45,168 nucleotides of DNA from Candidatus Roizmanbacteria bacterium (GCA_037441985.1 JBBIRE010000001.1:1-45168); one strand, 5' to 3'; shown: positions 366-41,018, counted from the stretch's first letter. Numbers and translations: made by a program. The notes: generated by a model not told the origin, from the letters alone.

Positions 366-400
366 ATTTGGGGGCTTATTTTTTTTATCTAAAACTCCAG

Positions 401-3589: not shown

Positions 3590-3591
3590 CT

Positions 3592-7756: not shown

Positions 7757-7778
7757 ATTTATTATTTATTATTTTTTT

Positions 7779-8252: not shown

Positions 8253-8263
8253 ATTTTATTTTT

Positions 8264-12853: not shown

Positions 12854-13965
12854 ATTACATTAATAATTGAACGAACAACTTTATCTTTAAAAATTTGATA
12901 AGAATAATTTTTTTTAACAAAATCTTTTCCGTTTTTAATAATTTCTTGATAAACTTTGGGATTGGTTTCAATTTCGTTGATTTTTTCAAAAAACTCCTCT
13001 TCATTTTTAAAAAGAATTCCATTTTTCTTGTCAGCAATTAGTTCCTTCATTCTACCTCCTTGATAGGCAATCACACAGCAACCAGAAGCCATTGCTTCTA
13101 AGGGAGCAATACCAAAATGTTCGACTTTTTCCGGGTGTTTTTCGTCATCTGTTGCAAACCCGGTAAAATGCCAATAATATTTTGTCTTTTGATAAAGATT
13201 AAGAATTTCTTGAAAAGAAATATTGGTTTTTAAAACAATTGACGGATCATTATTGGCGATTTTTATCAAAAAATCAAAATAATTTTTGTCTTCTTCTTTT
13301 ATTCTGCCTGCTAAAATTAGTTTATAATCTTTGAACAATCCATTATTACGTTTAATTTTTTTAAACATTTGAATAATTAAATCTTGTTTTTTACTATGCA
13401 TATGAGGAAAAAAACGTCCTATTGATAAAATGATTTTATCTTTTTTAGTTAATGGTAAATTTATAAATTCATCTTCGATATATGGTTCGATAACTATTGA
13501 TGGAATTCCCCATTTTTTAAGAAATCTTTGAGTAAATTTTGAATTAGAAATTAGTTGATAGTTGTAGGTTTTTATTTTATTAACTATGTTTGTTGGATAA
13601 AGTCTTTTATCAGGGACCATGGCGAAAATAAAATTTTTCTTAGCTAAAGAGAAAAAATAACTCCCATTAGTAACATAAAAAAAATAATCAAAATTAAATG
13701 TTTTTTTTAGAATGTTGATTGTTGAAAAGGGAAATTTTTTATTTTTAAAAATATTTGGGAGAAAGACAATCGGTGGTTTAAAAGTCAAACCAAAAATTTT
13801 TTTTATTTTTTGATTAAGATTTTCATCCCAAAAAATATAGATTTTATTTCCCAACTCATTGAAAACTTTTAAGATTGAAAGAATATGCTTTTCTCCACCA
13901 CCCAAAACATCCAAATAAGGATTATAGAGAGCGACTTTCTTCTGATTGACAATATTTTTTTTCAT
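12850..13965 (-). CDS. Glycosyltransferase family 4 (Pfam Glycos_transf_1)
   Basis: C-terminal EHFGIAPLEAMASGCCVIAY (E-x7-E motif region). The ATG at 13965 (MKKNIVNQKKVALYNPY) is preferred to 14016, which lies deep inside the upstream gene. Confidence 0.85.
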   Translation of the reverse strand: MKKNIVNQKKVALYNPYLDVLGGGEKHILSILKVFNELGNKIYIFWDENLNQKIKKIFGLTFKPPIVFLPNIFKNKKFPFSTINILKKTFNFDYFFYVTNGSYFFSLAKKNFIFAMVPDKRLYPTNIVNKIKTYNYQLISNSKFTQRFLKKWGIPSIVIEPYIEDEFINLPLTKKDKIILSIGRFFPHMHSKKQDLIIQMFKKIKRNNGLFKDYKLILAGRIKEEDKNYFDFLIKIANNDPSIVLKTNISFQEILNLYQKTKYYWHFTGFATDDEKHPEKVEHFGIAPLEAMASGCCVIAYQGGRMKELIADKKNGILFKNEEEFFEKINEIETNPKVYQEIIKNGKDFVKKNYSYQIFKDKVVRSIINVI

Positions 13966-14704
13966 ATAAAAAAAGATAAGTAATCGTTTTGGAAAAAGCT
14001 TGATAGATAGATTCAATTATACCCCAAATACCGTCTAAAAAGCCAAGATTTTTAAACATTCTTCTCCATAGCTCGCCAGCAAATTTTCTAAAGAATGTTA
14101 AAGTATTAACAAAGCGGTTAGCTTGAAAGAGAAGAGTAGATTCAATATCTTCAAACTTGGCAGTTTTTTCCACCATTTGGTGAAGATCACCATGAAAATA
14201 ATGAAGAAGCGGATTTTTTAAATAACCACCGTTGCCCTTAATAACTGGCGTTGAATGAATTGTTTTAGGCCATTCAACAAAATATTTTTTATTTATTAAC
14301 CTTATTTGATAATCATGCCACCAACCGCCGTATTTAAGCCAGAGATTGATAAAAATATTTTTTCTTGGAATTTTATAATAAGTGTAATTTTCTGATTGAA
14401 TAGCTTCTTTGATTTCTTTTGCTAACTCAGGAGTTAATCGTTCATCAGCATCAAGAATTAAAACCCAAGGAGAATTAGCGATTTTTATCGCTTCTTGGCG
14501 GGCTAATTCTACATAAGCAACAGGAGAAAAAATATAATAATCAACTTTTTTTTCCTTGACAATTTTTATTGTTTTGTCATTACTTTGGAGATCAAAGACG
14601 AGAATATTTTTTGTTAAAGTTCGAGCATTATCAATTAAATCAGCAATTTCTTTTTCGTTATTATAGGTAAAAACAATAATCGTTAAACAATTTGTCATTG
14701 TCAA
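13922..14704 (-). CDS. Glycosyltransferase family 2
   Basis: LTIIVFTYNNEKEI, VFDLQSNDKT, WVLILDADERL (DxD). Confidence 0.85.
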   Translation of the reverse strand: MTMTNCLTIIVFTYNNEKEIADLIDNARTLTKNILVFDLQSNDKTIKIVKEKKVDYYIFSPVAYVELARQEAIKIANSPWVLILDADERLTPELAKEIKEAIQSENYTYYKIPRKNIFINLWLKYGGWWHDYQIRLINKKYFVEWPKTIHSTPVIKGNGGYLKNPLLHYFHGDLHQMVEKTAKFEDIESTLLFQANRFVNTLTFFRKFAGELWRRMFKNLGFLDGIWGIIESIYQAFSKTITYLFLYEKKYCQSEESRSL

Positions 14705-14711
14705 AATTTTA

Positions 14712-16139
14712 TCATTTTTTTAATTCCTTTGGAATTTTTATTCCTATTTCTTCATTAATTTTTACATCTTCTCTTTTTGGAGGGATCCTTATTTCAATTA
14801 GAGGATCTTTAAAATTTCTTGACTGTTTGATTTGAAAATAATCGATTAAATAAGAAAAACCGTGATTACGTCCTAATGGAGTTGAAAATGAAATATTAAA
14901 TTTTTGACTATTAACAATTTCTTTAATCTTTTTTATAGTTTGAATCTTATAAAAGAGGCTCTGTGGTTGGTTTTTTAATTCAAGATAAATTTCTTCCTTT
15001 GTTGAAAGAAAAATAATTACAAAAATTACTAGGGGAAGAAATTTATTTAATCGTCGAAGAAGTTCAATAAGCGTGATATAAATAAACGGATAAAGAAAAA
15101 TGAAATAGTATTCAGATGGTCGTTGACCATAGAAAATAAAAAATAATGGAAAAATCAACCATAAAAAAAGCGTTAGTTGATAAAAAAGTTTAAAAAATCT
15201 TTTTTGTGTTTTTTTAATCAGATAAAGAATAATGAAAATGAAAATTAAATAAAATAATTTAGTCATTAAAACATTATTTACTTGGATAATTGGTTGTAGG
15301 AAATTACTAAAAACTTCCCACCAGATATTAATATCTTTACTTTTTAGTTTTGAAGAAAAAAATAATTGTTGAAAGCCTTTGAGATTTAAGAAATTATGTC
15401 GAAAATCAAAAATAATAATTGGAAGAAAGGTTAAAAAGTATCCTAGAAGTATTAAAATAAATTTTTTAATGCTAAGCTTTTTTTTGTTAATCGATAAAAT
15501 TACTTCAAAAAAAAGAAAAAAAATTAATAAAAGAATAAATTGGAAATGAAAATTATTAAAAAAACCGATAAGGAATCCGGAAAATAAATAAAACCACCAC
15601 TTATTATTTTTATCCTCAAAAGATAATTTTGTTAAATGCCAGACGATGATTGTTGCTATAGGGATAACGATTGGATTCCATGGTGTGGTTTCAAAATTAA
15701 TCAAAAGATAATTGATTGACCAAAAAGCAAGAAAAAATATCGCTTGCCAAATGCCAAAGAGATTTTTGAGAAAATAAAAAGATAAAAAGAAGGATAAAGA
15801 GTTATAAAAAATTAAAAAGATGATTAATGCCGATGGATGAAGAGTGGTGAAAAAATAAAACGGCGTTAATAAGTAAAAAAAATAAGGAGCGAGAAAAAAG
15901 CCTGTTTCATCTTTCACTCTTGGTCCGATTAAAGTTAATCGTTTTTCAACCAGAATTCTTTTTACTTGAAAGCTATAGTTTTCTTGATCCCAGTCAAAAA
16001 TAACTCTTTTTTCTAAGTTGTAAAATCTAAAAAAAACAAAACAATGAAAAAAATTATTATAATTACAATGATTTTTTTCATATTTGCTGTCCTTATTTAT
16101 GATACACCAAAATGGATTGAAATTTAGACAAATTGTCAT
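14712..16139 (-). CDS. GT-C-like polytopic membrane protein (family B paralog 4); 5' end interrupted by a frameshift at a T8 tract
   Basis: Shares FRFY..DWDQE..LTLIGP..WNP..FHFQ blocks with the ORFs at 27695, 31489 and 34913. The listed ORF lacks the first TM helix. An ATG at 16081, preceded by AAGGA, encodes MKKIIVIIIIFFIVLFF in another frame. That frame joins the main frame if the T8 run (plus-strand A8, 16029-16036) were T9. Confidence 0.7.
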   Translation of the reverse strand: MTICLNFNPFWCIINKDSKYEKNHCNYNNFFHCFVFFRFYNLEKRVIFDWDQENYSFQVKRILVEKRLTLIGPRVKDETGFFLAPYFFYLLTPFYFFTTLHPSALIIFLIFYNSLSFFLSFYFLKNLFGIWQAIFFLAFWSINYLLINFETTPWNPIVIPIATIIVWHLTKLSFEDKNNKWWFYLFSGFLIGFFNNFHFQFILLLIFFLFFEVILSINKKKLSIKKFILILLGYFLTFLPIIIFDFRHNFLNLKGFQQLFFSSKLKSKDINIWWEVFSNFLQPIIQVNNVLMTKLFYLIFIFIILYLIKKTQKRFFKLFYQLTLFLWLIFPLFFIFYGQRPSEYYFIFLYPFIYITLIELLRRLNKFLPLVIFVIIFLSTKEEIYLELKNQPQSLFYKIQTIKKIKEIVNSQKFNISFSTPLGRNHGFSYLIDYFQIKQSRNFKDPLIEIRIPPKREDVKINEEIGIKIPKELKK

Positions 16140-20640: not shown

Positions 20641-21447
20641 ATTAATAATCAGATGAACTTTTGTTTTTAGAGGAGCATACTTCAACCCAAATTTAAATCG
20701 ATTTTTTTCCTGATAAATTTGATGAATTTTTGAACCAGAGCCTTCGGTCGACTGAGCATTTTTGTGCCAGAGAACGATTTTTGGATTGTAAAAAAGATTA
20801 ATTTTCTTTTTTATTGCCCGATGGCAAAAATCAGCATCTTCGTAATAAAGAAAATAATTTTCGTCCAAAAAACCAACTCGATCGATTACTTTTTTATCAA
20901 AGATCATCAGGCAACCAGTAATAAATTCTGTTTTTTCAAATTGATCATATTGTCCTTTATCGACTTCATCTACCCCACGATGGGGTGTAAAAACATTTTT
21001 CCAGTCAAAAAAGCCACCAGCATACCAGATAACTTTTCCTAAATCTTTTTTTTGATAACGATCTTTATGATATTCAAAACCTGGCGCGTAATAGATTTTT
21101 CCACCAATAATAGAAGAAGGATGTTCTTTAAGAGAATTGAGAATGTTATCAGCAAAATCTTCTTTAAAATAAACATCATTGTTAACAATACAGAAATTAA
21201 CAAAACCATTTTTGATGGCTTTTTTTATCCCTAAATTCACTCCGTGAGCATAGCCTAAGTTTTTTGAATAAATAACTGAATGAGAGAGTTGGGTTTTAAT
21301 GGTTTGTCTTTTTTTTTCATCAGAAAGATCAGCAATAAAAAGTTTAAAGTCTTTATTATTTTGTTTTTCTAAGGAAGAGAAAAAATCATCTGCCACTTGA
21401 TAGTTATTATAAAAAACAGTGATAATGGCCAATTGATTATTTTTCAT
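20614..21447 (-). CDS. Glycosyltransferase family 2 (rhamnosyltransferase-like)
   Basis: LAIITVFYNN, FIADLSDEK, YYEDADFCHRA. The ATG at 21447 is preferred to the TTG at 21465. Confidence 0.85.
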   Translation of the reverse strand: MKNNQLAIITVFYNNYQVADDFFSSLEKQNNKDFKLFIADLSDEKKRQTIKTQLSHSVIYSKNLGYAHGVNLGIKKAIKNGFVNFCIVNNDVYFKEDFADNILNSLKEHPSSIIGGKIYYAPGFEYHKDRYQKKDLGKVIWYAGGFFDWKNVFTPHRGVDEVDKGQYDQFEKTEFITGCLMIFDKKVIDRVGFLDENYFLYYEDADFCHRAIKKKINLFYNPKIVLWHKNAQSTEGSGSKIHQIYQEKNRFKFGLKYAPLKTKVHLIINLLKKTFSS

Positions 21448-22882
21448 AAGAAAAAAAATATTCAATTTCTTTTTTGAGATTAAATTTAAACAAAAATGTT
21501 AAAACAAAATAGTAGGTTAATCCGCCACTCAAGATTAATAAAGCAGTTAATAAATATAAATTTTTTATTGCCAATGATTGGATTAATAACAAAATAAAAA
21601 TCATTACTAACCCGGCAAAAATTGGTTTTTTTATTGAGGAAAAAATGCTAAAAGAAAAATATTTTTTTGCTAGGGAAAGAACAAAGAAAAAGGTGAAAGA
21701 GATTATTAAATGAGTCGAAGGAAAACCAAAAATATCAAAAATTTTTGTTAAAGTTGGTGTTAACAACCAGGTAATGATTGTCCAAAAAAGCATTAGATTA
21801 AAAGAAATTTTTACTTTGCCAATGGCATTAAAAATGTTAACAAATGGTGCCGAATAAATAACCAAAAAACTAGAAAAAACAAAGATTCTAAAGATTGGTA
21901 GAGCCGGTTCCCATTTTTGGTATTTAGGAATAAGATAAACCAAATGGGGCATAAGAAAGAAAGAAAGAATCATTATAGGAAGAATAATTAAAGTTTGATA
22001 ATAAAGGATTTTATTTATGATTAGGGAAATTTTTTCTTTATTTTCTTGAAGACGGGCAACCAGGGGAAAAAGAATTTTGGTGATATTGTCCATAATAATT
22101 CTAATTGGCGCCTCAGCCCATTTTTTTGCCCAACCAATATAACCAACACTCTCAAAACCGATGACTTTTCCCAAATACAAGATAATCAGGTCGTCTTTAA
22201 AAAGAGCGAGAAATGATGAGGTTTGAAAAGGTAGCCCAAAAGATAACAGTTGTTTTAAATTTTTTTTCACTAGGCCAATTTTTGGTTGCCATGGGGAAAG
22301 GTGATAAATAAGGATTAACCCAATAATAGAACGAGATAAAACACCAATGATGAAACTTCTTAGTTGAAAATTTAAAAGTGCAAAAATAATCACGGTTAAA
22401 TAAAAAAAAGTATTTTCGACGACTTGTACGAAAACTATTTTTTGATATTGGATTTTTCTTTCTAAAAAAATGGAGGGAATCGTTTTTAAACTCGAGATAA
22501 AAAAAGAAATAAGAAGAGCATAATAGAGATAAAGACCATCATTAGGCAGCCGGTAAAATTGGACAATCAATTTTCCAAGAAAAAAACCAATTGAGATTAA
22601 AGAAAGAATTAAGATTTGCTGAAATGTAAAGACTGATTTGACATCATCGTCAGTAATTTCTTTTTTTTGAATCAAAGAGGCGGCTAGACCGATATCAGAA
22701 AAATAATTTAAAAAGGAGATTGTTGATAAAAGAGTAATATAAATACCAAAGATTTTTGGCGAAAGAATAATCGTTAAGACTAGATTGGCAATTAAACCAA
22801 GAAACGCTGAATAACCGCTCTGGAAAAAAAGACTTAAACTACTAAAAAAGGCTTTTCTTTTGAGTTTTTTTAGATCATTCAT
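21437..22882 (-). CDS. Polysaccharide/oligosaccharide flippase, Wzx-like (MOP superfamily)
   Basis: About 12-14 TM segments. The N-terminal block FSSLSLFFQSGYSAFLGLIANLVLTIILSPKIFGIY...GLAASLIQKK is typical of Polysacc_synt family proteins. Confidence 0.75.
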   Translation of the reverse strand: MNDLKKLKRKAFFSSLSLFFQSGYSAFLGLIANLVLTIILSPKIFGIYITLLSTISFLNYFSDIGLAASLIQKKEITDDDVKSVFTFQQILILSLISIGFFLGKLIVQFYRLPNDGLYLYYALLISFFISSLKTIPSIFLERKIQYQKIVFVQVVENTFFYLTVIIFALLNFQLRSFIIGVLSRSIIGLILIYHLSPWQPKIGLVKKNLKQLLSFGLPFQTSSFLALFKDDLIILYLGKVIGFESVGYIGWAKKWAEAPIRIIMDNITKILFPLVARLQENKEKISLIINKILYYQTLIILPIMILSFFLMPHLVYLIPKYQKWEPALPIFRIFVFSSFLVIYSAPFVNIFNAIGKVKISFNLMLFWTIITWLLTPTLTKIFDIFGFPSTHLIISFTFFFVLSLAKKYFSFSIFSSIKKPIFAGLVMIFILLLIQSLAIKNLYLLTALLILSGGLTYYFVLTFLFKFNLKKEIEYFFSYEK

Positions 22883-25247: not shown

Positions 25248-25251
25248 ACTT

Positions 25252-26670: not shown

Positions 26671-26769
26671 TAATAAAATAACGAGTAAATGGCGGTTGAA
26701 AAGAGATAAAGATGAGATAAAAAAGTGGAAATAAAAATATTAATTTATTTATTATTTTTTTTGTAGTTT

Positions 26770-27685
26770 TTATAAATAAAAGATTGATGAAATTAAGCTA
26801 ACAGGCCAAAGGATACTCCATTGATGAGATTTCAAGAAATCAAATTTTCCCCACCAAGATTTGAAATACCCACTGATAAACAGTAAAAAGGTTGAACCAA
26901 TAAGAGGACTTTTATTGTATAAAAATGAAATTTAAAAGTTTTTGAGAGAAAAAATTGAATTAAATCGCCAAGCTGAATCAATATAGGTTTTTAAGTAAAA
27001 AAAATTATAAACAAAAAAAGCAATAATGAGAGAAGCAATTAATTTCTTGAAATAAAATTTTTTCCTCTGGAGATTATAGAAAGATAAAAAGAAAATAAAG
27101 ATAATCGGAGTGGGCCAAAATTTAGTGGCCGCGAATAACCCAAGAACTATTCCGTGAAGAATAAATTTTTTAGGCCATAATAATACTGTTAGGAAATAAA
27201 TTAAGCCAATTGTTGCTTGACCGAGGTCTAAAAAAGCGTTACTCGATAAAAAGATAAATAAAGGATCAATAATTAGAAAAAAAACACGCGACACACGAGA
27301 CTAAAAAATTTTTAAAAAGAATTATTCCCATAAGATAAGTGGAAGTTATTAATATAATTCCAAAAAAAATTTGTACCCAATAAGGATTATTTAGATAAAT
27401 AACTGATATGTCAAAAAGATATTTAGTGAAAGGAGGATAGGCAAAATTATAATTTATTGGATTTTTACCTATGGCATATAAATAGCCGATTGTGATATAA
27501 ATTTCTTCATTAGAGAGAAAAATTCTTTTTCCTGGAACTTCGTTGGGGATATCTTGGGAAAGAAAATATCTTTTTAAAAGTTTTTTATCGAATTGATAGG
27601 TAAAGACTTTTTTTTGAAAAATAAAAAGGATGATTAAATAAAAAATAATTAATAAGCCGATTGAGATAAAATGTATTTTTTTCAT
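26770..27685 (-). pseudogene. Decayed GT-C-like membrane protein gene (frameshift plus in-frame stop)
   Basis: The ORFs at 27266-27685 and 26932-27294 overlap in different frames. They fuse if the T8 run (plus-strand A8, 27277-27284) were T7. After the TAA at 26932-26934 the same frame stays open for 53 more codons (ISFLYNKSPLIGSTFLLFISGYFKSWWGKFDFLKSHQWSILWPVS...) to the TAA at 26770-26772. Confidence 0.65.
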
Positions 27686-27694
27686 TTTTATTAA

Positions 27695-29233
27695 CTAAAG
27701 CGAACTTTGATTTTCAAATTTAAATAAATATTTATGCTTATCAATTTCCCAAGTTTTTACTAATTTTAAATTAGGGGTAGCAAGAAATTCCCAGCGATTT
27801 TCTTTATAAATCGTCTTTAAATCAGGAGCAAAGACAAATAAAGTTTTTAAATTTTGGTAAGAAAACTCGTCACTTATAGGAGGAAGATTTGGATCTCTTT
27901 CTATGTAAAATCTTAAGTATAAAGCGCGAGCATCACCGACAAAATTTTCAGTAATGTTGTATGGAATATCAAAATCTGTTGTCTTAATTATTTTTATTGC
28001 TTTTTCTATATGGGATATAGAAGGATAAGTAGTTGATTTTTCATTTAAAATTCCTTGATGAGCGTTTTGAGAGTATAAAATATTTTTATTGGTTAAAAAA
28101 TAAAGCGTTATTAAAAGAATAGATACTTTTTTGTCAACAAGATTTGTAATTAAAATAACAAAGAGTGGAATTGAAATGAAAAAATATCTTAAATAATATA
28201 CCTCATGAGAAAGCAAACTTGAAATAATAGTAGAAAAAATAACAATTATTAAAAGAATCTTTAATTCTGTAATAGAAGATTTTTTTGAATTATTTTTTAA
28301 TTTTTTTCTATTATGAAATCCAATAATTAAAGTTATAAAGAAACCGCTAATAACTTTTTGCCAATAAGTAAGATTTACAATTGAATTAAAATACGCTGCT
28401 TCTGTTTCAAAACCGCCTAAAATCATTACTGGAATTAAAAATATATCTACTAATTTTATCGGTATCGTTCTTGCCAAAATTGGTTGAAAGACGGTGACGA
28501 ATTTTCGGTTAATAGTGGTGTTATATATTAAAGCATTAGTTAGATAAAAATGATTTTTTATTTCAAATAAGATAAGAGGTAAAATGGACAAAACGAAACT
28601 TAAAATAAAAAAAAGAGAATTTTTTAAGTTTTTTTTAAAAAGAAAAATCAAACTTATTCCAATAGTAAAAATAACAAAATAATGAAAATGAAAAAGGAGA
28701 CCGGCAAGAAAGCCACTTAAAAAATAATTAATTTTTCTATTATCTTTTAGAGCCAGAAAGTAATAATACCAATAAATAGGACTAATTGAAATGACAAAAT
28801 TTGGATTCCAAAAAAATCTTAAATGAGCGACGACAACCGGTGATAAAGAAAAAATTGCTGTTGCTAAAAGTGATTTCTTTTGATCAAAAAAAAGACGAGT
28901 GAGTCTATAAAAATAATAAATTCCAATCATCATTAAAAAAATATTGATATAAACAGGACCTAAAACATCTTTATGAAATAAAAAGAGTCCTAAAGCACCC
29001 ATATAATAAGTGAGAGAGCTAAAATAAATTTGCCTTGTTCCATACTGACCAAATGAAAGAGGTGGTCCAATAGCGGTTATTTCTTTATTTTTAAGCACTC
29101 TTAATGAAGCCAAAGTATCTCGAGCCATATCGCCGGAAAAGAAATAGGTGTATCGGAGATTAAATATATAAAAGAAAAAGGCAGTGATTATTACGAGAAT
29201 TAAATAACTATCTTTTTCTAAAATTTTTTTCAT
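27695..29233 (-). CDS. GT-C-like polytopic membrane protein (family B paralog 3)
   Basis: Has TM1, then NLRYTYFFSGDMARDTLASLRVL..ITAIGPP, FFWNPNF and HFHYF, the blocks shared with family B paralogs 1, 2 and 4. Confidence 0.7.
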   Translation of the reverse strand: MKKILEKDSYLILVIITAFFFYIFNLRYTYFFSGDMARDTLASLRVLKNKEITAIGPPLSFGQYGTRQIYFSSLTYYMGALGLFLFHKDVLGPVYINIFLMMIGIYYFYRLTRLFFDQKKSLLATAIFSLSPVVVAHLRFFWNPNFVISISPIYWYYYFLALKDNRKINYFLSGFLAGLLFHFHYFVIFTIGISLIFLFKKNLKNSLFFILSFVLSILPLILFEIKNHFYLTNALIYNTTINRKFVTVFQPILARTIPIKLVDIFLIPVMILGGFETEAAYFNSIVNLTYWQKVISGFFITLIIGFHNRKKLKNNSKKSSITELKILLIIVIFSTIISSLLSHEVYYLRYFFISIPLFVILITNLVDKKVSILLITLYFLTNKNILYSQNAHQGILNEKSTTYPSISHIEKAIKIIKTTDFDIPYNITENFVGDARALYLRFYIERDPNLPPISDEFSYQNLKTLFVFAPDLKTIYKENRWEFLATPNLKLVKTWEIDKHKYLFKFENQSSL

Positions 29234-29236
29234 CTC

Positions 29237-30748
29237 TTATTTAACCAATTCAAAAAAATATATTGTTGATTGTCCGCCTGGTTTCTCGAATTTTTTAATT
29301 AGTTTTATTGGCCATTCTGAAGGAAATTCTGTTCGGTGGGGAAAAACAGCATAAACATATTTTTTTTCTAAATCTTTTTGATGATTTAAAAGTTGTGGTA
29401 AATCTAATGGCCAGTAACCGATAACTTCTACTTGATGTCCATCGCGGGGTAAACTAGCACGAAGCATATCGGCAATTAAACCAAAATTGCCTTCAGCTAA
29501 AAGAATGACTGGTCTTTCTTTTGATTTACATATCGAAAAATTGATAATTTCTTTTATTCCCCAGCCAGCTGGTCCCCCTTCAATATATTGACCTCGATCG
29601 ATCGGTGGGAAAGAGATGTTTTTAAAATCGAAAAGGATTTTATAATCAAAAAAAAGTTGACTTAAGAAAAGAGGAATAAAAAAAACCCAATAAATTTTTT
29701 TGTTTTTTAAATAAGAAAAATAAATAGCGGCAAAAATGACAAAGAGTGAACCAAAAAAAATTAAATAACGAGGAAAAATTACTTTAGAGATGGAACAAAT
29801 AATAAAAAAGGGAATAAAAAACCAAATTAAAAAATATAAACCAAGAGAAAGATTTTTTTTGATAAGCATCAATAAACCCAATAAAGAAAATATTGGCAAA
29901 ACAAAACCTGATTCCCATATAATATCAATCCAAACACCTTTAAAGTTATTCCAAAATAGAGAAAATGGCGCTTTAAGGAATTCTTCTTTAGTCATCAAAA
30001 AAGTGGTGTTTTTAATATCAATATAATGCATATAAGGAGAAAGTCGTTGGATATTGTAAATTGCGAATGAAAGAATGAGAACAATGAAAAATAAAAGATA
30101 AAAATTAACTAATTTTCTAAAATTAATTTCTTTTTTGCTTGAAACAATTGGGGCAAAAAAAGATAAAAGTAAAAATAGTTGAGCCGATGATTTAGTGAGA
30201 AGCGATAGTCCGCCAATTAATCCAAAAATAAGAGCGATGTCTAAACGGACAGTTTTTATTAGAACAACAGATAAGAATATGATCCAGATAAAAGCCATAT
30301 TAACTGCCGAATCAGTGAGTGCCATTCGATCATAAAAAAGAAAATAAGGAGTGAAAATGTAAAAAAAACTGCCTAAAAAGGCGGCTTTTTTATTAAATAA
30401 AAAAAACAGTAATGAAAAAATACCAATTAAAGAGATAAAACCAGTTAGAACCGAAAATAGTCTTCCAGCAAAAAGCGGCTGGTTAGGAAAAATTTTTAAA
30501 AGAGGAATAGTCGCCCAAGTTTGAAGAGGCTGTTTGCCATCGGTTAAGGAGATAAAACGCATTGAGGCATCGTGCCAAGCAGTTTTTGCCCAATTAATAT
30601 AAATCCCTTCATCAGTAAAAATTGGAAATTTTTCCAGATTAATGAGTCGAGTTGCAAAATATAAAAGTATTAGGATAAAAATACTTAAAAAATCTCTTTT
30701 ATTAAACTTTTTATTAAAAAAATTAAAAATCTTAAAAACGTCAAACAT
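29237..30748 (-). CDS. GT-C fold membrane glycosyltransferase, ArnT/PMT_2-like (family A paralog 2)
   Basis: LINLEKFPIFTDEGIYINWAK acidic-loop motif after TM1. Polytopic, with a C-terminal soluble domain. Confidence 0.75.
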   Translation of the reverse strand: MFDVFKIFNFFNKKFNKRDFLSIFILILLYFATRLINLEKFPIFTDEGIYINWAKTAWHDASMRFISLTDGKQPLQTWATIPLLKIFPNQPLFAGRLFSVLTGFISLIGIFSLLFFLFNKKAAFLGSFFYIFTPYFLFYDRMALTDSAVNMAFIWIIFLSVVLIKTVRLDIALIFGLIGGLSLLTKSSAQLFLLLSFFAPIVSSKKEINFRKLVNFYLLFFIVLILSFAIYNIQRLSPYMHYIDIKNTTFLMTKEEFLKAPFSLFWNNFKGVWIDIIWESGFVLPIFSLLGLLMLIKKNLSLGLYFLIWFFIPFFIICSISKVIFPRYLIFFGSLFVIFAAIYFSYLKNKKIYWVFFIPLFLSQLFFDYKILFDFKNISFPPIDRGQYIEGGPAGWGIKEIINFSICKSKERPVILLAEGNFGLIADMLRASLPRDGHQVEVIGYWPLDLPQLLNHQKDLEKKYVYAVFPHRTEFPSEWPIKLIKKFEKPGGQSTIYFFELVK

Positions 30749-30751
30749 AAA

Positions 30752-31492
30752 TTATTTTTGAAAAATTAATCGATGGCGATAAATTTTTAATCGACCAAGT
30801 AAATAAATTATACTCCAATAAAGACAGCCAAACCCATAGATAAGACTTCTTTTAAAATTAATAGATGAGGCTTCTTCAAAATATTTTGTTGGACAACTTA
30901 TTTCACCAATTCGAAATCCCTGTGCAATTATTTGAAGAAGAATTTGATTGTCAAAGATAAAATCATTGGAATTTTTTTTAAAATTAATTTTTTTTAAAAC
31001 CTCACTTCGATAAGCTCTCATTCCAGTGTGATATTCCGAAAGCTTAATACCAGTGCAGAGATTTTCAAAAAAAGTTAAGAAGCGATTAGAAAGGTATTTA
31101 TAAAAAGGCATACCACCTTTTAAAGCACCGCCACTTAAGATTCTTGACCCTAAAACTACATCGTAGTTACCACTTTCAATCATCGTCACAAGGGCCGGAA
31201 TTAATTTCGGGTCATATTGATAATCAGGATGAATCATAATGATAATATCCGGGTTTAATTGAAGGGCTTTTTGATAGCAGGTTTTTTGATTGCCACCGTA
31301 ACCTAAGTTTTTAGGATGAATAAAATATTTAATTTTTAATTTTTTGGCGATTTCAATCGTTCTGTCGGTGCTAGCATCATCAACTAGGATGACATCTTTT
31401 TTATACTCATCCGGAATATCGAAATAAGTTTTTTCCAAAGTTTTTTCAGCATTATAAGCTGGTAAAACAATCACCACTTTCGACTTTTTCAT
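30752..31492 (-). CDS. GT2 polyprenyl-phosphate-sugar synthase-like glycosyltransferase (GtrB/ArnC/DPM1-like)
   Basis: VVIVLPAYNAEKTL, VILVDDASTDRT, HPDYQYDP, and a C-terminal hydrophobic segment (LIYGFGCLYWSIIYLLG), as in GtrB-type enzymes. Confidence 0.75.
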   Translation of the reverse strand: MKKSKVVIVLPAYNAEKTLEKTYFDIPDEYKKDVILVDDASTDRTIEIAKKLKIKYFIHPKNLGYGGNQKTCYQKALQLNPDIIIMIHPDYQYDPKLIPALVTMIESGNYDVVLGSRILSGGALKGGMPFYKYLSNRFLTFFENLCTGIKLSEYHTGMRAYRSEVLKKINFKKNSNDFIFDNQILLQIIAQGFRIGEISCPTKYFEEASSINFKRSLIYGFGCLYWSIIYLLGRLKIYRHRLIFQK

Positions 31493-32757
31493 TGCTTTTT
31501 TATTCTTTCAAACAAATAAAGTTGATAATAGTCATTTAAATTCCATTTTTTGATTAGTCTTCTTGGTTTAAAAAAAGCGACTTCATACGACAAAGTTTTT
31601 TCATAATCTTTGTTATGAGCGATGACGAAAAGATAACGATTTTGGTAATAATCATCATAATTAATTTGATATCCATCCCGAATGAGAAAATACTTTATCA
31701 CAGCGGCTTTCGTGTTATAGTATGACAAATCAGCAACGTTAAAATTTTCTTTTATCCCTGTTTGTTTAATTATCTGATATGCTTTTTCTTCCATGGGGTA
31801 ATTCCAATATTTAGCCGGCGCCCAATAAGATTGTTGGGGTTTTTTTAAATTTTGCAAAAGAGCATAAAAGAAAAGTGTAATTGTCAATAAAATAATTAAT
31901 TTTGTTGGTAGTTTTTTAACAGAGTTTTTTAATCGAAGCAAGACTAAAAAGATTAAAAAAAAGGAAAGGGATAGATAATAATGAGGAGTGTTAATTCCTC
32001 CTGGTTTGTCGACTCTTGACCAGTTTTTTAAAAATAAAATGGCAGTTTGGAAATTGTAAAAGTTATGTCTTAATTCAAAAATGAGAAGTGGTAGCAATCC
32101 AATTATGATACCTAAGGCAAAAATAAATAAGGTTCTCACTTTATTTTTTTCGTAGATAAGGAAATAAATAAAGAAGACAGAAACAATTAACAAAAACTGG
32201 TAGTGAAACTGAGTCAATAGGCCAAGAAAAAAAGCTACAATAAAAAAATTAAAAGTAGTTTTTCTTTGATAATAGTTTGAAAGAAAGTAGATAAAATAGG
32301 GTAAAAAAGAAAGTTGAAGGGTGGAGTTCCAGAGAAAACGAGTATAGTTAATAAAATAAGGAAAAAAAGAGTAAATTGTCAGAAAAATAAAAGCGACTTT
32401 TTGATTGCTTAATTTTTTTATTCCAAAATAAAGCGGAAAGATAGATGAGGCGGCAAAAATCATAAAAAGGTAAGAAGCCTTTACCGGATCCCAGTTACCC
32501 AATAAAAGAAAAAATAAAAATAAATGATAAGTTATTGGTCCTTGAAAAAGAAGTCGTCCTTGATAGGTAGCAGAAATTTGTGGGCCAATAAGGGTTAATT
32601 TTTTTTCTCGATAAATCCTTAAAGCTTCAATAGCAGATTCAGCTTGATCTTGAGACCAATTAAGAAAATAAGAAAAGTGAAAGGAACGAATAGGAATAAA
32701 AAGAAAAAAGAAGATAATCAAAAGAATTAATTCTAATTTTTTATTTATTTTTTTCAT
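31489..32757 (-). CDS. GT-C-like polytopic membrane protein (family B paralog 2)
   Basis: IRSFHFSYFLNWSQDQAESAIEALRI..LTLIGPQ, FLWNST and QFHYQF blocks. Confidence 0.7.
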   Translation of the reverse strand: MKKINKKLELILLIIFFFLFIPIRSFHFSYFLNWSQDQAESAIEALRIYREKKLTLIGPQISATYQGRLLFQGPITYHLFLFFLLLGNWDPVKASYLFMIFAASSIFPLYFGIKKLSNQKVAFIFLTIYSFFPYFINYTRFLWNSTLQLSFLPYFIYFLSNYYQRKTTFNFFIVAFFLGLLTQFHYQFLLIVSVFFIYFLIYEKNKVRTLFIFALGIIIGLLPLLIFELRHNFYNFQTAILFLKNWSRVDKPGGINTPHYYLSLSFFLIFLVLLRLKNSVKKLPTKLIILLTITLFFYALLQNLKKPQQSYWAPAKYWNYPMEEKAYQIIKQTGIKENFNVADLSYYNTKAAVIKYFLIRDGYQINYDDYYQNRYLFVIAHNKDYEKTLSYEVAFFKPRRLIKKWNLNDYYQLYLFERIKKQ

Positions 32758-34168
32758 TGTTAATTTCGAAACTTAACCAGTTATTAGTTTGACAGATAAT
32801 TTGGCCATTAAATTTCTTTTTAACTAATTGATAATCATTTTTATCAATCGTTAGATGGGAAAAATTATTTTTTATCTCCTTTAATTTATCAAGGGCGTAA
32901 AAAAATTCAACTGGTTTATTAAGATAAAAAACAAATGAAGGAGAGCCCCCATAATAAAAGGAAGAAGTAGTTTGATAATGGGCGGCTTCAAGAAATTGAC
33001 GATTTTTTCTTTCTTGTTCTTCAACAAAAAAGGCTAAACGCCCAATATTTTTTTTATTTAAGCACATTGCCAATTGAATTTTTTCTGGGATTTGATAGTT
33101 TGTAAGTCTAAAAAGATAAGTTCGTTGACTGAAATTGATAAGAAAAAAAATAAAGATTGGGAGAAAAGTTAATTTTTTTATTAATTGATGATTGATTTTT
33201 TGATAAAGATAACCAACGATTAGACAGACTAAGGGAAGAAAAATAACGACGTACCAATTAATTTTTGTTTTCATAATCGTTAACAAGGCTAAAAAAGGAA
33301 GAGGGGATGAAAGAATCATTAATCTTTCAAATTTTTTTATTTCTTTTTTTAGGTTAATTAAAAAAAGAAAATAACCTAGAATAATAAATAAATTAATAAA
33401 ATTTAGATTATTCCACAAAGCAAAAAAATAAAAAAATTTATTGCCAAAATGAAGTTCGATTGGAACATAAAGACGTTTAAACATCTGACTGAAAAAATGA
33501 TCGTCAATAAATTTCATTCCAAAAAAGAAATAACCTAGGATATACCACAAAGATGGGAAGATGATAAAAAATAATAATTTAATAATATTTTTTAGATTAA
33601 TTTTAATTTTTTGATAATTAATTAGGTGGTAAATAAAATCAAATAATAAAGGATAAAAACCAAGAACTGATTTTGAAAATACTCCCAAGGTTAAGAAAAA
33701 TAATTTTTTCCAGTATTCGGAAAAATATAGAAAATAACCTAACCAACTGATGGTTACTAAAAGATCGCTATTTAATGTAGTTGAGTGCTCAATAAAGATT
33801 GGTGTCGCCGCTAAAGTTAAGACTGAGATTAATACACTATGGTAATTATTAAAGAGCTTTTTGGCTAATTTAAATAAAATAAATAAAAGAATTATTCCTA
33901 AAATTACCATTAACAAGCGAGCAAAAAATTCATTTTCACCAAAAATAAAAAAATTTATTGCTAATAATATATGGGTTAAAGGTGGTTTGTCAAACCAAGG
34001 TTGATGGTTAAATGTCGTCCAGATTGAACGATTTGTAATCATTTCCCGAGCGATTTGGGCATACATTGCCTCATCCCAGTCATAGAATTTAACAGTTCTT
34101 AATTGATAATTGCGCCATAGAAGTCCAATCAATACGAAGATAAGAAAGAAAATTGAAATTTTTTTCAT
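32741..34168 (-). CDS. GT-C fold membrane glycosyltransferase, ArnT/PMT_2-like (family A paralog 1)
   Basis: FYDWDEAMYAQIAREM...PWFDKPPL is the classic ArnT/PMT_2 first-loop signature. Polytopic. Confidence 0.8.
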   Translation of the reverse strand: MKKISIFFLIFVLIGLLWRNYQLRTVKFYDWDEAMYAQIAREMITNRSIWTTFNHQPWFDKPPLTHILLAINFFIFGENEFFARLLMVILGIILLFILFKLAKKLFNNYHSVLISVLTLAATPIFIEHSTTLNSDLLVTISWLGYFLYFSEYWKKLFFLTLGVFSKSVLGFYPLLFDFIYHLINYQKIKINLKNIIKLLFFIIFPSLWYILGYFFFGMKFIDDHFFSQMFKRLYVPIELHFGNKFFYFFALWNNLNFINLFIILGYFLFLINLKKEIKKFERLMILSSPLPFLALLTIMKTKINWYVVIFLPLVCLIVGYLYQKINHQLIKKLTFLPIFIFFLINFSQRTYLFRLTNYQIPEKIQLAMCLNKKNIGRLAFFVEEQERKNRQFLEAAHYQTTSSFYYGGSPSFVFYLNKPVEFFYALDKLKEIKNNFSHLTIDKNDYQLVKKKFNGQIICQTNNWLSFEINNEKNK

Positions 34169-34923
34169 ATTTTATATCGGCCCATTATTTCGGCATATTT
34201 AATTCTTAAAAAGTCTTTTAAAGTCTCTAAGCTGTCTTTGAAAAAATTAACATTTTTTGTTTCAACATGACGCCAAATAACTGGGACTTCTTTAATTTTA
34301 AAGCCAAGTTTACTGGCTAAATATAAAAACTCTAAATCAAAACCGGCCGTCACCGATGAGCCTTTAGTTTTTCTTTTTTTTTCAAAAAGAATCATTTTTT
34401 CGATAATTTTTTCAGCCGCTTCTTTTTTAAAAAGCTTAAAACCACATTGGGTATCCTTGAGATTTTTTAACCCAATGGCTAAATTGCGAATAAAAATAAA
34501 CCCCTTCGCCATTAATTGCCTAGTTAATGGAGCGCCTTGACGACTACTGTTTCGTGAACCAATGATAATTTGATAATGTCCTGTTTCTCTAATAAGTTTT
34601 TCTGCTTCTTCGATTGGCGTAGCTAAATCAATATCAGAAAACATTATCCAACCACCCTGAGATTTTTTGATGGCTGAGATTATTGCATAACCCTTACCTT
34701 GATGAAGATTTTCTAAAAGTTTGAATTTTGGAAAAAGAGGAAGATATTTTTCCTTAATAATTTTTTTAGTTTTATCGGTCGAACCATCATCAGAGATAAT
34801 CACTTCAATAAATCTCGAATCATTGACAGTGAAGTTGCCAATTTTATCCAACACCCCTTTTTGAATATTGGCTTCTTCGTTGTAACAAGGAATAATAAGA
34901 GTAATCTTTAATTTATTTTCCAT
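34165..34923 (-). CDS. GT2 polyprenyl-phosphate-sugar synthase-like glycosyltransferase (ALG5/DPM1-like)
   Basis: ITLIIPCYNEE, IISDDGSTDKT, QGKGYAI, FSDIDLATP. The ATG at 34923 is preferred to 34947. Confidence 0.75.
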   Translation of the reverse strand: MENKLKITLIIPCYNEEANIQKGVLDKIGNFTVNDSRFIEVIISDDGSTDKTKKIIKEKYLPLFPKFKLLENLHQGKGYAIISAIKKSQGGWIMFSDIDLATPIEEAEKLIRETGHYQIIIGSRNSSRQGAPLTRQLMAKGFIFIRNLAIGLKNLKDTQCGFKLFKKEAAEKIIEKMILFEKKRKTKGSSVTAGFDLEFLYLASKLGFKIKEVPVIWRHVETKNVNFFKDSLETLKDFLRIKYAEIMGRYKI

Positions 34924-36388
34924 GGACGATTTTATAAATTTTAACACGATCGACTAGCCAAATTTTTTTGATTTTTTTATTTGAAAAAGCAGCAATTTGC
35001 CATTGAGGGTGATTCAAGACATCACAATTTTTTTCATAGCATAAAACATAAAGCTCATTTCCTTCAATTGAAGACTCTTCACTAAGCGGTTTTTTTCCGT
35101 AAATTTCTAAATAATAACGAATATGACCATCCATTTCAGTAAATGGAATGGGTACGATTTGATAAGGGGGTTTGGGATTTTCTTTGATGATCGATTGAGC
35201 AATTTTTTTGGCAATTTTAGTCTGGAAATTACCTTGTTTTTGATAAAAAGGATATTTTTTGTATTGAAGGAAGAAAAAATAAATTAAAAAAAGAAAAACA
35301 AAAATTTTATTTAAAAAATTTTTCCGAAAAAGGAAGGAAAGAATGACCGAAAGTATAAGAAAAAAACTTAAATAGATTGTTTGATAGTAATGCCAAAAGC
35401 GAAAGCTATTTAACGAGCTAAAGATAAAAATAAAGGAAAAAAAATTAAGCCAATTAATTTGGATAAAAGGATGGTTTTTTAATTTTTTTGGGAAGAAGAA
35501 AAAGACGATTAAAAAGAAAAAAAGAATAAGAGCAATTAAAAAATGACTTAACTGAATATTAAAAACATAATTGAAAAAATTAGTCATTGTTTCCCAAAAT
35601 CGATTGAGAAAAGAACCACCATAAGTTTCTTTGACTTGAGTAAAGGCTTTAATAAAATTTTTACTATTCAAGAATTTATTTTTTATATCAAAAAAAACAA
35701 GGGGTAAATTAAAAAGAAATAATCCTCCAATAAAAGAAAAAAGATCGATCAACAAATTTTTAAAAGACCTTTCTTTTAAAATCTTTTTCAAGTTAAAAAT
35801 AGTAGAAATAAATAATGGGAAGATTAACAATAATCCTAAATAATGGAGTTGAGTTGATAGGGCAAAAAAAACTCCTGTTAAAAAGACAAATAACCTTTTT
35901 TTTGTTAAGATAAAATGAGAAAAAAAATAAAGAGTAAAAAAGGCAAAATACGGCAGAAGATTGGGATTCCAAGAGAAGCGCGATGAGTAAACAAGAATTG
36001 AAGAGAAGGTGGCTAAAAATAAAAAGATATGAGCGAGAGTTTTATCGATTTTTCTAAGAAGGAAAAAGAATATGATTAAAGAAACGATTGATAAAAATCC
36101 AACACCAAACCCTAGACCGACAGGATTAAACTTAAAAAGAAATAAAAATGGGCTCATAAGATAATAGTAAAAAGGACCTAAAAAAACTTGACCAATCGAA
36201 GATACTGGACCTATTGCTGGTAAATGCTCTAAAGTAATAATTCGTTTAATGATAATCGCGTCTCTTCCTTGATCGCCTAAAAAAGTTAAAAATTCCTCCA
36301 AGCGGTAAAAACGGGTAAAGGTAAGAATCAAAATGAAAATCGCCAACATCTTATTTTTTGCTAAAATATTGAGTATGCGACGGGTCAT
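34913..36388 (-). CDS. GT-C-like polytopic membrane protein (family B paralog 1)
   Basis: FTRFYRLEEFLTFLGDQGRDAIIIKRI..LPAIGPV, FSWNPNL and QLHYLG blocks. Confidence 0.7.
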   Translation of the reverse strand: MTRRILNILAKNKMLAIFILILTFTRFYRLEEFLTFLGDQGRDAIIIKRIITLEHLPAIGPVSSIGQVFLGPFYYYLMSPFLFLFKFNPVGLGFGVGFLSIVSLIIFFFLLRKIDKTLAHIFLFLATFSSILVYSSRFSWNPNLLPYFAFFTLYFFSHFILTKKRLFVFLTGVFFALSTQLHYLGLLLIFPLFISTIFNLKKILKERSFKNLLIDLFSFIGGLFLFNLPLVFFDIKNKFLNSKNFIKAFTQVKETYGGSFLNRFWETMTNFFNYVFNIQLSHFLIALILFFFLIVFFFFPKKLKNHPFIQINWLNFFSFIFIFSSLNSFRFWHYYQTIYLSFFLILSVILSFLFRKNFLNKIFVFLFLIYFFFLQYKKYPFYQKQGNFQTKIAKKIAQSIIKENPKPPYQIVPIPFTEMDGHIRYYLEIYGKKPLSEESSIEGNELYVLCYEKNCDVLNHPQWQIAAFSNKKIKKIWLVDRVKIYKIVHGK

Positions 36389-37499
36389 ATTACCATATTT
36401 TACTTTAACCGCAGTTGTTTTTCTAACGACTTTGATTGTTTGGCTGCCTTTTTTATTGCGTCAAAATTATTGGTTTGGACTTAAGATTCCTAGTTCAGAT
36501 ATGAGTTATATTTATAAGAATTTTGATGGACCGCTTTATATCGTCCCGGCAAAAACTTTTTATCATCCAAAAGCGATATCGAATTTAGGAATAGAATTAC
36601 CCTTACCAGAAATTTATTTTACCGCTCATTTGCCCTTTTATCCCTTTTTAATTCGCGCTTTTTCACCAATTTTTGGTTATCTAAAATCAATGATTTCTGT
36701 CAATTTATTAGCGACTGTTTTTTTAACCTGTTTTTTTTATTTTTTTCTTAAAAAATTTAAAATAACGAAATATCCATTAATCCTAAGCATTATTCTTTTA
36801 TTTACACCAAAATTTTTAGTGGTGCGAAGTATTGGCGCGCCAGAAAGTTTGTTTATATTATTTATTCTTTTATCGCTTTTTTTCTTTGAACAAAAAAGGT
36901 TTTTCTGGTCAGGATTGTTTGGCGGATTGGCAACAATGACTAAATCGCCGGGAATCTTGCTTTTTTTTGCTTATACTCTTTCGATTATAGAAAATTATTG
37001 GAAAACAAAAAAAATTAATTGGCAGTGGTTGGGAATATTGTTAATACCTTTAGGTTTATTGGCAGTTTTTAGTTTATATTGGTATCAATACGGTGATTTT
37101 TTTGCTTATTTTCACTCAGGTGATAACCTTCATCTTTATGGTCTGTTTAGTGTTTTTAATTTTCGTGCCAATTGGATTGGTACTGCTTGGTTAGAAGATA
37201 TTATTCTTTATTTTTTTCTTTATGGTTTGACAGTTATTTATTTATTTCGATTACCCAACAGAAGCTTTTTTTATTATTCCCTGATTTATTTCTTAGCAAT
37301 CATTAGCGTCCAACATCGTGATATTCCTCGATATAGTCTTCCTCTTTGGCCAATGGCATTGATTGCATTTGAAAAATTTTTTACTAGCAAAAAATTTTTA
37401 ATAGTTTTTCTTTTTTTGCTCCCCGGGATCTATTTATTTGCTTGGAATTTTATCATCTATAACATAATGCCAGTCTCTAATTGGTTGCCTTATCTTTGA
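36375..37499 (+). CDS. GT-C-like membrane protein, PIG-V/Mannosyl_trans2-like
   Basis: FDGPLYIVPAKTFY...FTAHLPFYPFLIRAF resembles the WD..Y..IA..GY / AFFPLYP pattern of PIG-V-type mannosyltransferases. The ATG at 36375 (MRRVILPYF + TM) is preferred to 36333. Confidence 0.55.
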   Translation: MRRVILPYFTLTAVVFLTTLIVWLPFLLRQNYWFGLKIPSSDMSYIYKNFDGPLYIVPAKTFYHPKAISNLGIELPLPEIYFTAHLPFYPFLIRAFSPIFGYLKSMISVNLLATVFLTCFFYFFLKKFKITKYPLILSIILLFTPKFLVVRSIGAPESLFILFILLSLFFFEQKRFFWSGLFGGLATMTKSPGILLFFAYTLSIIENYWKTKKINWQWLGILLIPLGLLAVFSLYWYQYGDFFAYFHSGDNLHLYGLFSVFNFRANWIGTAWLEDIILYFFLYGLTVIYLFRLPNRSFFYYSLIYFLAIISVQHRDIPRYSLPLWPMALIAFEKFFTSKKFLIVFLFLLPGIYLFAWNFIIYNIMPVSNWLPYL

Positions 37500-39478: not shown

Positions 39479-39484
39479 TAATTG

Positions 39485-40873: not shown

Positions 40874-40941
40874 TTTATTCTTATCTACGAGTTTTAGTTA
40901 ATTGATTCAATTTTCCTTTGATAAAATATATTTAAACTTAA

Positions 40942-41016
40942 GCGTCCGTAGCTCAGTGGTAGAGCACCACTCTTATAAAGTGGGAGTCGATGGTTCGAAT
41001 CCATCCGGACGCACCA
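40942..41016 (+). tRNA. tRNA-Ile (anticodon UAU), CCA encoded
   Basis: All four stems of the manual cloverleaf are perfect. Acceptor GCGTCCG/CGGACGC, D stem GCTC/GAGC, anticodon stem CCACT/AGTGG with loop CT-TAT-AA, T arm GATGG-TTCGAAT-CCATC, then A-CCA. Confidence 0.85.
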
Positions 41017-41018
41017 AT

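Follow-up and report, generated by a model that had tools for sequence, protein, structure and literature searches.

Several described systems couple a synthase of lipid-linked sugars to membrane-embedded glycosyltransferases of the GT-C class. In the three-component systems GtrA/GtrB/Gtr*, CsbB/GtcA/YfhO and GacI/GacK/GacL, a family 2 glycosyltransferase (GT2) acting as the synthase adjoins a GT-C enzyme with an outward-facing acidic loop (PMC11127046). The SCC locus of Streptococcus mutans contains two undecaprenyl-phosphate sugar synthases and two GT-Cs in the cognate pairs SccN/SccM and SccP/SccQ; one donor serves a further transferase, and no flippase has been identified (PMC11754754). 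In the Pgf system of S. mutans (PgfS, PgfM1, PgfE, PgfM2), a single synthase of the GT-A type is encoded together with two GT-Cs (10.1101/2024.05.05.592596). Mycobacterial Ppm1, which is a DPM-like synthase, feeds PimE, MptA/B/C and many other GT-Cs for the synthesis of an outside glycan; its catalytic domain is devoid of transmembrane (TM) helices, and a polytopic membrane partner is either fused to it or encoded ahead of it, as seen with Ppm2-Ppm1 of M. smegmatis, where the upstream partner holds the synthase at the membrane (PMC3485146). Short synthases supplying a series of GT-Cs are also found in the lumen pathway of the endoplasmic reticulum (ER), where ALG5 and DPM1 serve ALG6/8/10 and ALG3/9/12. 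The present analysis concerns a stretch of 45,168 nucleotides from Candidatus Roizmanbacteria bacterium (GCA_037441985.1 JBBIRE010000001.1:1-45168; the window), on the minus strand of which an operon at 26770-36388 encodes two GT2s of the synthase type among five intact GT-Cs. A reading of this DNA from the sequence alone, here called the sequence-only reading, had regarded a synthase combined with two GT-Cs of different families as undescribed; Pgf, SCC and Ppm1 are precedents for it.

The operon is probably best explained as a core, consisting of the gene pair B1 and G1 together with further GT-Cs, to which an accessory set (A1 and the pair B2 and G2) and a variable tail are added, and which serves the assembly of an extracytoplasmic glycan or the glycosylation of proteins. 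At the cytoplasmic face, G1 and G2 would each load a sugar onto polyprenyl phosphate. The lipid-linked sugars would reach the outer face, where the five GT-Cs of the PMT_2 type (B1, A1, B2, A2 and B3) would pass them to an extracytoplasmic acceptor, be it a glycan or a protein. The sixth GT-C of the operon is dead. Folds, family relations, synteny and gene fusions were established by the analysis, whereas donor use, complex formation and acceptor are proposed. The features of the operon are the following, B1, B2 and B3 being members of one family, termed family B.

34913..36388, minus strand: B1, family-B GT-C membrane glycosyltransferase, 491 amino acids; first gene of the operon
34165..34923, minus strand: G1, GT2 of the polyprenyl-phosphate sugar synthase type, 252 amino acids from the ATG; no TM helix; motif DID
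32741..34168, minus strand: A1, ArnT-like GT-C, 475 amino acids; first-loop motif YDWDE
31489..32757, minus strand: B2, family-B GT-C, 422 amino acids
30752..31492, minus strand: G2, second GT2 of the polyprenyl-phosphate sugar synthase type, 246 amino acids; motif HPD; moderately hydrophobic C-terminal helix
29237..30748, minus strand: A2, GT-C, 503 amino acids; first-loop motif FTDEG; family-B-like C-terminal domain
27695..29233, minus strand: B3, family-B GT-C, 512 amino acids; not accompanied by a GT2; belongs to the operon's variable tail
26770..27685, minus strand: decayed pseudogene of a PMT_2-type GT-C, truncated and broken by a single frameshift and a single in-frame stop
36389..36500, no strand assigned: divergent intergenic region of 112 nucleotides, likely the promoter region of the operon

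Calling of open reading frames (ORFs) reproduced the genes, coordinates, strand and junctions that had been read from the sequence. Along the operon, the genes overlap by 11, 4, 17 and 4 nucleotides and are then separated by gaps of 3, 3 and 9 nucleotides. The ORF of G1 opens at a GTG (34947) upstream of the ATG used here, while the start of B1 at 36388 is backed by the orthologue in the closest genome, the Candidatus Roizmanbacteria metagenome-assembled genome (MAG) GCA_037444855.1 (locus L001), with most of its proteins sharing 86-94% identity with their counterparts in the window.

All five large operon proteins are, by homology, GT-C enzymes of the PMT_2 type, and their activity is predicted on this basis. 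Against the Pfam model PMT_2 (PF13231, GT39/GT83-like GT-C; gathering cut-off 26.1 bits), scores of 46.9 bits for A1 (E-value 4.6e-12), 38.3 for A2 (2e-9), 38.2 for B3 (2e-9) and 27.9 for B2 were obtained. B1, with 25.7 bits, stays just below the cut-off and is included because its paralogues tie it to the family: B1, B2, B3 and a fourth protein of the window, B4 (14712-16139), are related at E-values from 1e-5 to 2e-23, the last value being that of the B2-B3 pair. Matches to the NCBIfam model Agl23 (13-15 bits versus a cut-off of 126) were dismissed as noise, and none of the operon GT-Cs matched YfhO of Pfam. Sequence searches of the PDB with B3 and A2 gave no match, and a fold search was therefore needed for B3. 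The AlphaFold2 (AF2) model of B3, based on an alignment of 37 sequences, is of high quality (predicted local distance difference test, pLDDT, 89.9; predicted template modelling score, pTM, 0.91), and with it all 40 best Foldseek matches in the PDB (E-values up to 0.2) fall into the GT-C fold group; they comprise ALG12 as the top match, ArnT (TM-score 0.60), AglB, PglB, STT3, AftA, ALG9, Pmt4 and PIG-U. Asp35 of B3 is located right after the first TM helix in the motif GDxxRD and is nearly invariant across family B; B1 carries FLGDQGRD at the corresponding place following its first TM helix. Lack of a GT-C fold or of an acidic first loop had been named beforehand as speaking against the view taken of family B; both fold and loop are present. 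A profile search with family B yielded 2,633 clusters at 50% identity (E-value <=1e-30), and nearly all of the 150 listed are full-length, yet neither Pfam-A nor NCBIfam holds a model of its own for this large family.

The acidic first loop of GT-C enzymes is found throughout, as GDxxRD in family B, as DWDE in A1, where it is conserved at >=90% in 13 relatives, and as the conserved TDEG in A2. In the PDB, A1 matches ArnT (5ezm, 3e-6). The grouping of A1 and A2 into one ArnT-like family did not hold. No BLASTP similarity between the two was detected, and in profile-profile comparisons the A1 family is linked to the A2 family with an E-value of 1e-15 and to the B family with 6e-12, while the A2 family matches the B family over the full length with 7e-15; in addition, the C-terminus of A2 matches B2. 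A "family A" is thus not a family, and A1 and A2 belong to different subfamilies, and, to judge from these profiles, A2 resembles family B no less than it resembles A1.

G1 and G2 are, as far as homology can tell, polyprenyl-phosphate sugar synthases of the type represented by dolichyl-phosphate mannose synthase (DPMS), GtrB and ArnC, with a length of about 250 amino acids. Both match the Pfam GT2 model (8.5e-22 and 3e-27, respectively). In sequence searches of the PDB, DPMS of Pyrococcus furiosus is the best match of either protein, with 2e-13 (5mlz) for G1, followed by GtrB and ArnC, and with 3.5e-14 for G2, followed by ArnC. The AF2 model of G1 (pLDDT 84.4) has exclusively DPMS, GtrB and ArnC structures among its top 24 Foldseek matches, at TM-scores of about 0.70. 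The lipid-sugar synthase type suggested for both GT2s by the sequence-only reading is thereby borne out, as are its motifs DIDLATP in G1 and HPDYQYDP in G2 and its statement that the two are clearly different, since they are old paralogues sharing 26% identity. The nucleotide-binding residues and the second Asp are invariant in the synthases. At the position of the DxD motif, G1 has DID, while G2 and all of its homologues have HPD, with the second Asp alone being kept.

The C-terminal membrane anchor of DPMS/GtrB-type enzymes, composed of two TM helices in GtrB and ArnC and of four in P. furiosus DPMS, has no clear counterpart in either protein. Neither contains a hydrophobic segment above the Kyte-Doolittle threshold; the C-terminus of the G1 model is a single long helix (residues 227-246), and the supposed C-terminal TM helix of G2 turned out to be moderately hydrophobic and below that threshold. 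G1 and G2 lack a clear membrane anchor and resemble the anchor-less DPM1 and Ppm1 types. Conservation is strong for both synthases. The 120 best-scoring clusters of G1 homologues are all at least 65% identical to it, one homologue bearing the JGI label dolichyl-phosphate beta-glucosyltransferase. Among the NCBIfam models, PgfS is the best match of G1, far below the cut-off (55.8 bits versus 500), and the best matches of G2, DolP-hexose transferase, PpgS and AglJ, are all below their cut-offs as well. Homologues of G2 with at least 60% identity include proteins from Nitrospirae and Thermodesulfovibrionales; in MAGs of these groups (60-63% identity), the gene is found among genes for TPR-containing proteins and PMT_2 membrane proteins. 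Either an unusually conserved synthase family or horizontal transfer would account for this similarity across phyla. In general, the synthases evolve more slowly than the GT-Cs, with 59-94% versus 25-88% identity to the window proteins.

For the comparison of gene order, one genome per species was scanned with an alignment of B3. The 37-sequence alignment yielded no sufficiently conserved stretch, and 28 closer sequences were used instead; this led to 60 loci, mostly from Microgenomates, to which further loci were added through homologues of G1 and G2 (loci are numbered with the prefix L). The ORFs of these loci were assigned to families by hidden Markov models (HMMs) built from the window proteins. 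Iterated HMMs drifted into generic GT-C enzymes and were replaced by first-round family HMMs combined with best-hit assignment.

B1 is located directly upstream of G1 in 15 of 15 related loci, and B2 directly upstream of G2 in each of the seven Patescibacteria loci with G2. The B1/G1 junction is an overlap of 4 or 11 nucleotides in eight of nine called pairs. In a more distant metagenomic clade, a B1-like gene is followed by a G1-like GT2 gene in 13 of the 14 loci with downstream sequence; this sample was found through a fusion protein (see below), with the downstream GT2 lying outside the query. What recurs as a unit is thus a GT-C gene of family B followed directly, and usually with an overlap, by the gene of an anchor-less synthase, and the B protein would serve its synthase in two ways, as cognate transferase and as partner in the membrane. 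The genes of the window are tightly coupled, as had been noted, and relatives keep the gene order. Apart from the window, L007, L008 and L036 alone keep the complete series B1-G1-A1-B2-G2-A2, while L011, L056 and L071 show the order A1-A2-B2-G2. Nine loci (L015, L021, L029, L031, L067, L068, L069, L072 and L073) possess B1-G1 and A2 without G2. The common layout in the related group is one synthase gene followed by five or six GT-C genes, usually downstream of a GT4-Fpg gene pair, which BacA directly precedes where the locus extends that far. Several contigs among L008, L011, L014, L017, L029, L031, L036 and L041 are titled "uncultured Gammaproteobacteria", "Spirochaetia", "Pseudomonadales" or "Methanosarcinales"; these MAG taxon labels are probably wrong, given a Patescibacteria-like gene content and a GC content of 29-42%.

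Every scored locus whose G1 orthologue reaches at least 55% identity also has an A2 orthologue (49-88% identity), regardless of G2. Orthologues of A1 (at least 44% identity) are found in all seven G2-positive and in none of the seven G2-negative loci, and this pattern requires at least three changes on 100 of 100 bootstraps of neighbour-joining trees of G1 and A2. The co-inheritance groups are {B1, G1, A2} and {A1, B2, G2}, and they cut across two triads, B1-G1-A1 and B2-G2-A2, into which the operon had been divided. The widely conserved core consists of B1, G1 and downstream GT-Cs including A2; A1 and the B2-G2 pair form an accessory set of some lineages only; B3 and the pseudogene make up a fast-changing tail.

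In this tail, B3 is just 70% identical to its counterpart in L001, as compared with 86-94% for its neighbours. The decayed GT-C gene that had been recognized at 27685-26770 is real, as judged from three-frame translation and from intact relatives. Its pieces are 27266-27685, 26932-27294 past the frameshift, and a stretch to 26770 past the in-frame stop; when joined, they match intact proteins of 408-410 amino acids encoded in the same operon of L068 and L069 (4e-15 and 2e-17), and these counterparts exceed the PMT_2 cut-off. The region 24600-29233 as a whole looks like a variable hot spot in comparison with L001. A 472-amino acid membrane protein (25252-26670) and a 215-amino acid protein (24600-25247) are only 50% and 53% identical, and L001 has an extra gene for a 683-amino acid PMT-like protein and a convergent gene for a 567-amino acid PMT_2 protein; the window, for its part, has the pseudogene. 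Such variation is typical of surface-glycan diversification.

Synthase and B-type GT-C are also found as parts of one polypeptide. Two GT2::B fusions, P0388 (741 amino acids) and L074:2998-5199 (733 amino acids), combine a G1-like GT2 domain with a B1-like GT-C, that is, the same two parts that are adjacent genes in related loci. The two fusions share about 47% identity, and the GT2 domain of P0388 shares 36% with G1. Their topology fits, with the GT2 domain and the N-terminus of the B part both being cytoplasmic. The neighbouring gene in L074 encodes another fusion, of a GT2 with a GtrA/DPMS TM domain (379 amino acids; L074:1855-5199 holds both genes). The GT2::B fusions speak for a coupling, be it physical or functional, between the synthase and the B-type GT-C; no description of GT2::GT-C fusions was found in a limited literature search.

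A GtrA-like small flippase had been stated to be absent from the operon, and a scan of ORFs and hydrophobicity over the whole window agrees with this and gave no SMR candidate either. There is no room for such a gene in the operon, the small and unassigned ORFs scanned gave no Pfam GtrA match, and the window contains no free-standing ORF of 70-220 amino acids with three or more hydrophobic segments, save for a pseudogene fragment. A 103-amino acid ORF with two hydrophobic segments (40902-41213, plus strand) is DUF2905 and not GtrA-like. GT2-GtrA fusions do exist in the relatives L006 and L074. The sole flippase-like gene of the surrounding island is of the Wzx/MOP type (21437-22882); it is 3.9 kb away from the operon and syntenic in L001, L002, L071 and L073. 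For another three-component system, a MATE-family protein has been proposed as the flippase of the lipid-linked sugar (PMC11127046). The MATE family is taken by us to be of the same superfamily as Wzx/MOP.

Several observations weigh against the reading of the operon as a core with accessory set and tail built from B-synthase units. G2 carries HPD and not DxD, and the GT2 of the third B-GT2 pair of the window, that following B4, did not prove DPMS-like when searched against the PDB. Numerous B2-like genes occur singly, as do more distant B3 homologues. When gene order was shuffled within loci, a B gene followed by a GT2 gene was observed 26 times versus 10.2 expected, a value reached in none of 2000 shuffles; after removal of nine orthologous operons the excess was gone (11 versus 7.5, reached in 225 of 2000 shuffles). 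A general B-GT2 rule, for which the permutation result had been considered, was therefore rejected, and the excess in the shuffled sample is synteny within a lineage. As to co-inheritance, A1, B2 and G2 are contiguous in the window-type order, so that one indel could account for their being gained or lost together, and the co-occurrence tree comprises 14 loci and was made by neighbour joining only. In the fusions, the order is GT2 before B, the reverse of the gene order in the window, and P0388 is a singleton on a contig of 2.3 kb, L074 residing on one of 31.6 kb.

The sequence-only reading had taken the operon for two equivalent triads, in each of which the central synthase would feed exactly its two flanking GT-Cs. 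The triad order with its tight junctions does exist in the window and is kept in three further loci, and strings of B, GT2 and GT-C genes number 12 versus 1.6 expected from within-locus shuffles, but this excess nearly vanishes without the orthologous operons (3 versus 0.8). The permuted loci, and the nine that keep A2 without G2, show that the triad is not a unit of inheritance; A1, which should belong to G1, tracks G2 instead; A1 and A2 have no relationship closer than that of the superfamily; and typical relatives have one synthase for five or six GT-Cs. Two equivalent triads are consequently very unlikely. A different question is that of the acceptor. If the GT-Cs were protein O-glycosyltransferases of the PMT, Pgf or PgtC kind, they would act on Ser/Thr-rich surface or membrane proteins and would neither build nor decorate a polysaccharide. 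All of them match PMT_2, PgfS is the best, albeit sub-threshold, NCBIfam match of G1, and streptococcal Pgf and GtrB/PgtC2 do act in this way (10.1101/2024.05.05.592596). On the other hand, the Wzx-type flippase, GT4 enzymes, soluble GT2s and UppP of the island typify the assembly of lipid-linked oligosaccharides, five to seven different GT-Cs in series fit a stepwise building of glycan as known for mycobacterial lipomannan and lipoarabinomannan (PMC3485146), and the operon itself contains no gene for an acceptor protein. We hold protein O-glycosylation as the sole role to be unlikely, bearing in mind that the two types of acceptor are not mutually exclusive.

The B-synthase unit itself invites two stronger interpretations. 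A family-B protein and the anchor-less DPM1-like synthase encoded downstream might form an obligate complex, a single machine for synthesis on the inner face and transfer on the outer face that maybe also provides the route across the membrane; the absence of a GtrA-type flippase would thereby be explained. This is a distinctly unlikely extension of the coupling suggested by synteny and fusions. Alternatively, family B might be mainly non-catalytic, an anchor or scramblase for the synthases in place of GtrA, with transfer left to the A-type GT-Cs. The invariant B-GT2 order with overlapping junctions, the synthases devoid of TM helices, the GT2::B fusions, the absence of GtrA from the window and the Ppm2-Ppm1 precedent (PMC3485146) would all suit such a role. 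Yet family B retains a confident GT-C fold, a nearly invariant first-loop Asp besides other invariant residues, and an extracytoplasmic C-terminal domain that is likewise conserved; B3 and many homologues are encoded without a GT2 neighbour; and in L074 the GT2-GtrA fusion adjoins the GT2::B fusion, so that B is no substitute for GtrA there. A non-catalytic family B is thus highly improbable, and the core with accessory set and tail, in which the B proteins would be transferases, is preferred.

The operon is part of an envelope-glycan island of about 30 kb (10372-40273) in a Roizmanbacteria-like genome of the Microgenomates within the Candidate Phyla Radiation (CPR). The GC content of the window is about 28%. 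At its start, five ORFs (320-10369) are consistent in order and size with rpoB, rpoC, rpsL, rpsG and fusA, and the island comes next. Its genes code for numerous polytopic proteins resembling GT-Cs, for five GT2s and two GT4s, and for a Wzx/MOP flippase, UppP/BacA and Fpg. Features of the island outside the operon are:

21437..22882, minus strand: Wzx/MOP-type flippase gene (Polysacc_synt_3, 3e-46)
13922..16139, minus strand: pair of B4 (14712-16139) followed by a GT2 gene (13922-14704)
39482-40273: UppP/BacA, a member of the island
37506-38345: Fpg DNA glycosylase gene, embedded in the island

B4 belongs to a further module on the minus strand (10372-16139), which includes the GT2 gene 13922-14704, a GT4 gene (12850-14016), another GT2 gene (11951-12853) and the gene of a weakly A2-like membrane protein (10372-11958). 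The B4-GT2 pair recurs in L015 and L046; as a third synthase dyad it was rejected on account of its GT2. The Fpg gene has a GT4 gene on one side and the GT-C operon on the other, with BacA/UppP alongside in the window, L067 and L072, and the GT4-Fpg pair is conserved across Microgenomates, the loci including L067, L068, L069, L072 and L073.

Upstream of the operon, a mechanically called ORF on the plus strand (36333-37499) shares 56 nucleotides with the 5' end of B1. The divergent gene codes for 332 amino acids in L001; its start was therefore placed at Met57 (36501), which leaves the divergent intergenic region of 112 nucleotides. The protein of this ORF matches PMT_2, GT87 and the AZOBR_p60025 surface-glycopolymer family. 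Scans of this AT-rich DNA for consensus promoters (59 promoter-like sites versus 51 in shuffles) and terminators (6 versus 5.3) performed no better than chance and are thus uninformative on the operon boundaries. A 78-amino acid ORF antisense within A2 (29790-30026, plus strand) is most likely a chance ORF in such DNA.

The genomes of CPR/Patescibacteria are very small, yet about 30 kb are given here to genes for envelope glycans. The operon points to an elaborate glycan whose assembly would take place outside the membrane, much as in mycobacteria or in the eukaryotic ER, and such a glycan is likely to be relevant to host attachment and phage recognition. The B-GT2 dyad, the anchor-less synthases and the GT2::GT-C fusions offer a handle on how the synthesis of lipid-linked sugars is coupled to transfer on the outside, and the same three observations bear on the long-unsolved flipping step.

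In comparison with the known systems, the operon differs from the three-component systems in having no dedicated flippase of the GtrA/SMR or MATE kind, in its synthases being devoid of TM helices, in the number of components, with five live GT-Cs and two synthases, and in a GT-C subfamily, B, that is not separately curated. The SCC system belongs to another organism, has other GT-C families, a known rhamnan acceptor and fewer GT-Cs, and overlapping B-GT2 gene pairs or fusions are not reported for it. In Pgf, the GT-Cs PgfM1 and PgfM2 are of the YfhO type and an epimerase is included; the score of G1 against PgfS excludes membership by the NCBIfam cut-off. Mycobacterial Ppm2/D1 is not a GT-C and the GT-C genes are scattered, whereas here they are united in one operon and the partner of the synthase is itself a GT-C. 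The ER pathway is alike in its logic alone, the host here being bacterial and no sign of orthology being seen. The resemblance to ArnC and ArnT is one of fold and logic and not of membership, the NCBIfam equivalog scores being 39.6 (G1) and 34.0 (G2) versus 529 for ArnC, and 23.2 (A1) versus 567 for ArnT. In limited literature searches, no description of this locus from CPR bacteria came to light. The chemistry, in which lipid-linked sugar synthases feed GT-Cs, is of a known kind; the points of difference are a GT-C subfamily without a model of its own, anchor-less synthases whose genes overlap that of the upstream GT-C, the fusion of GT2 with GT-C, and the combination of five live GT-Cs with two synthases, and with no small flippase, in one CPR operon.

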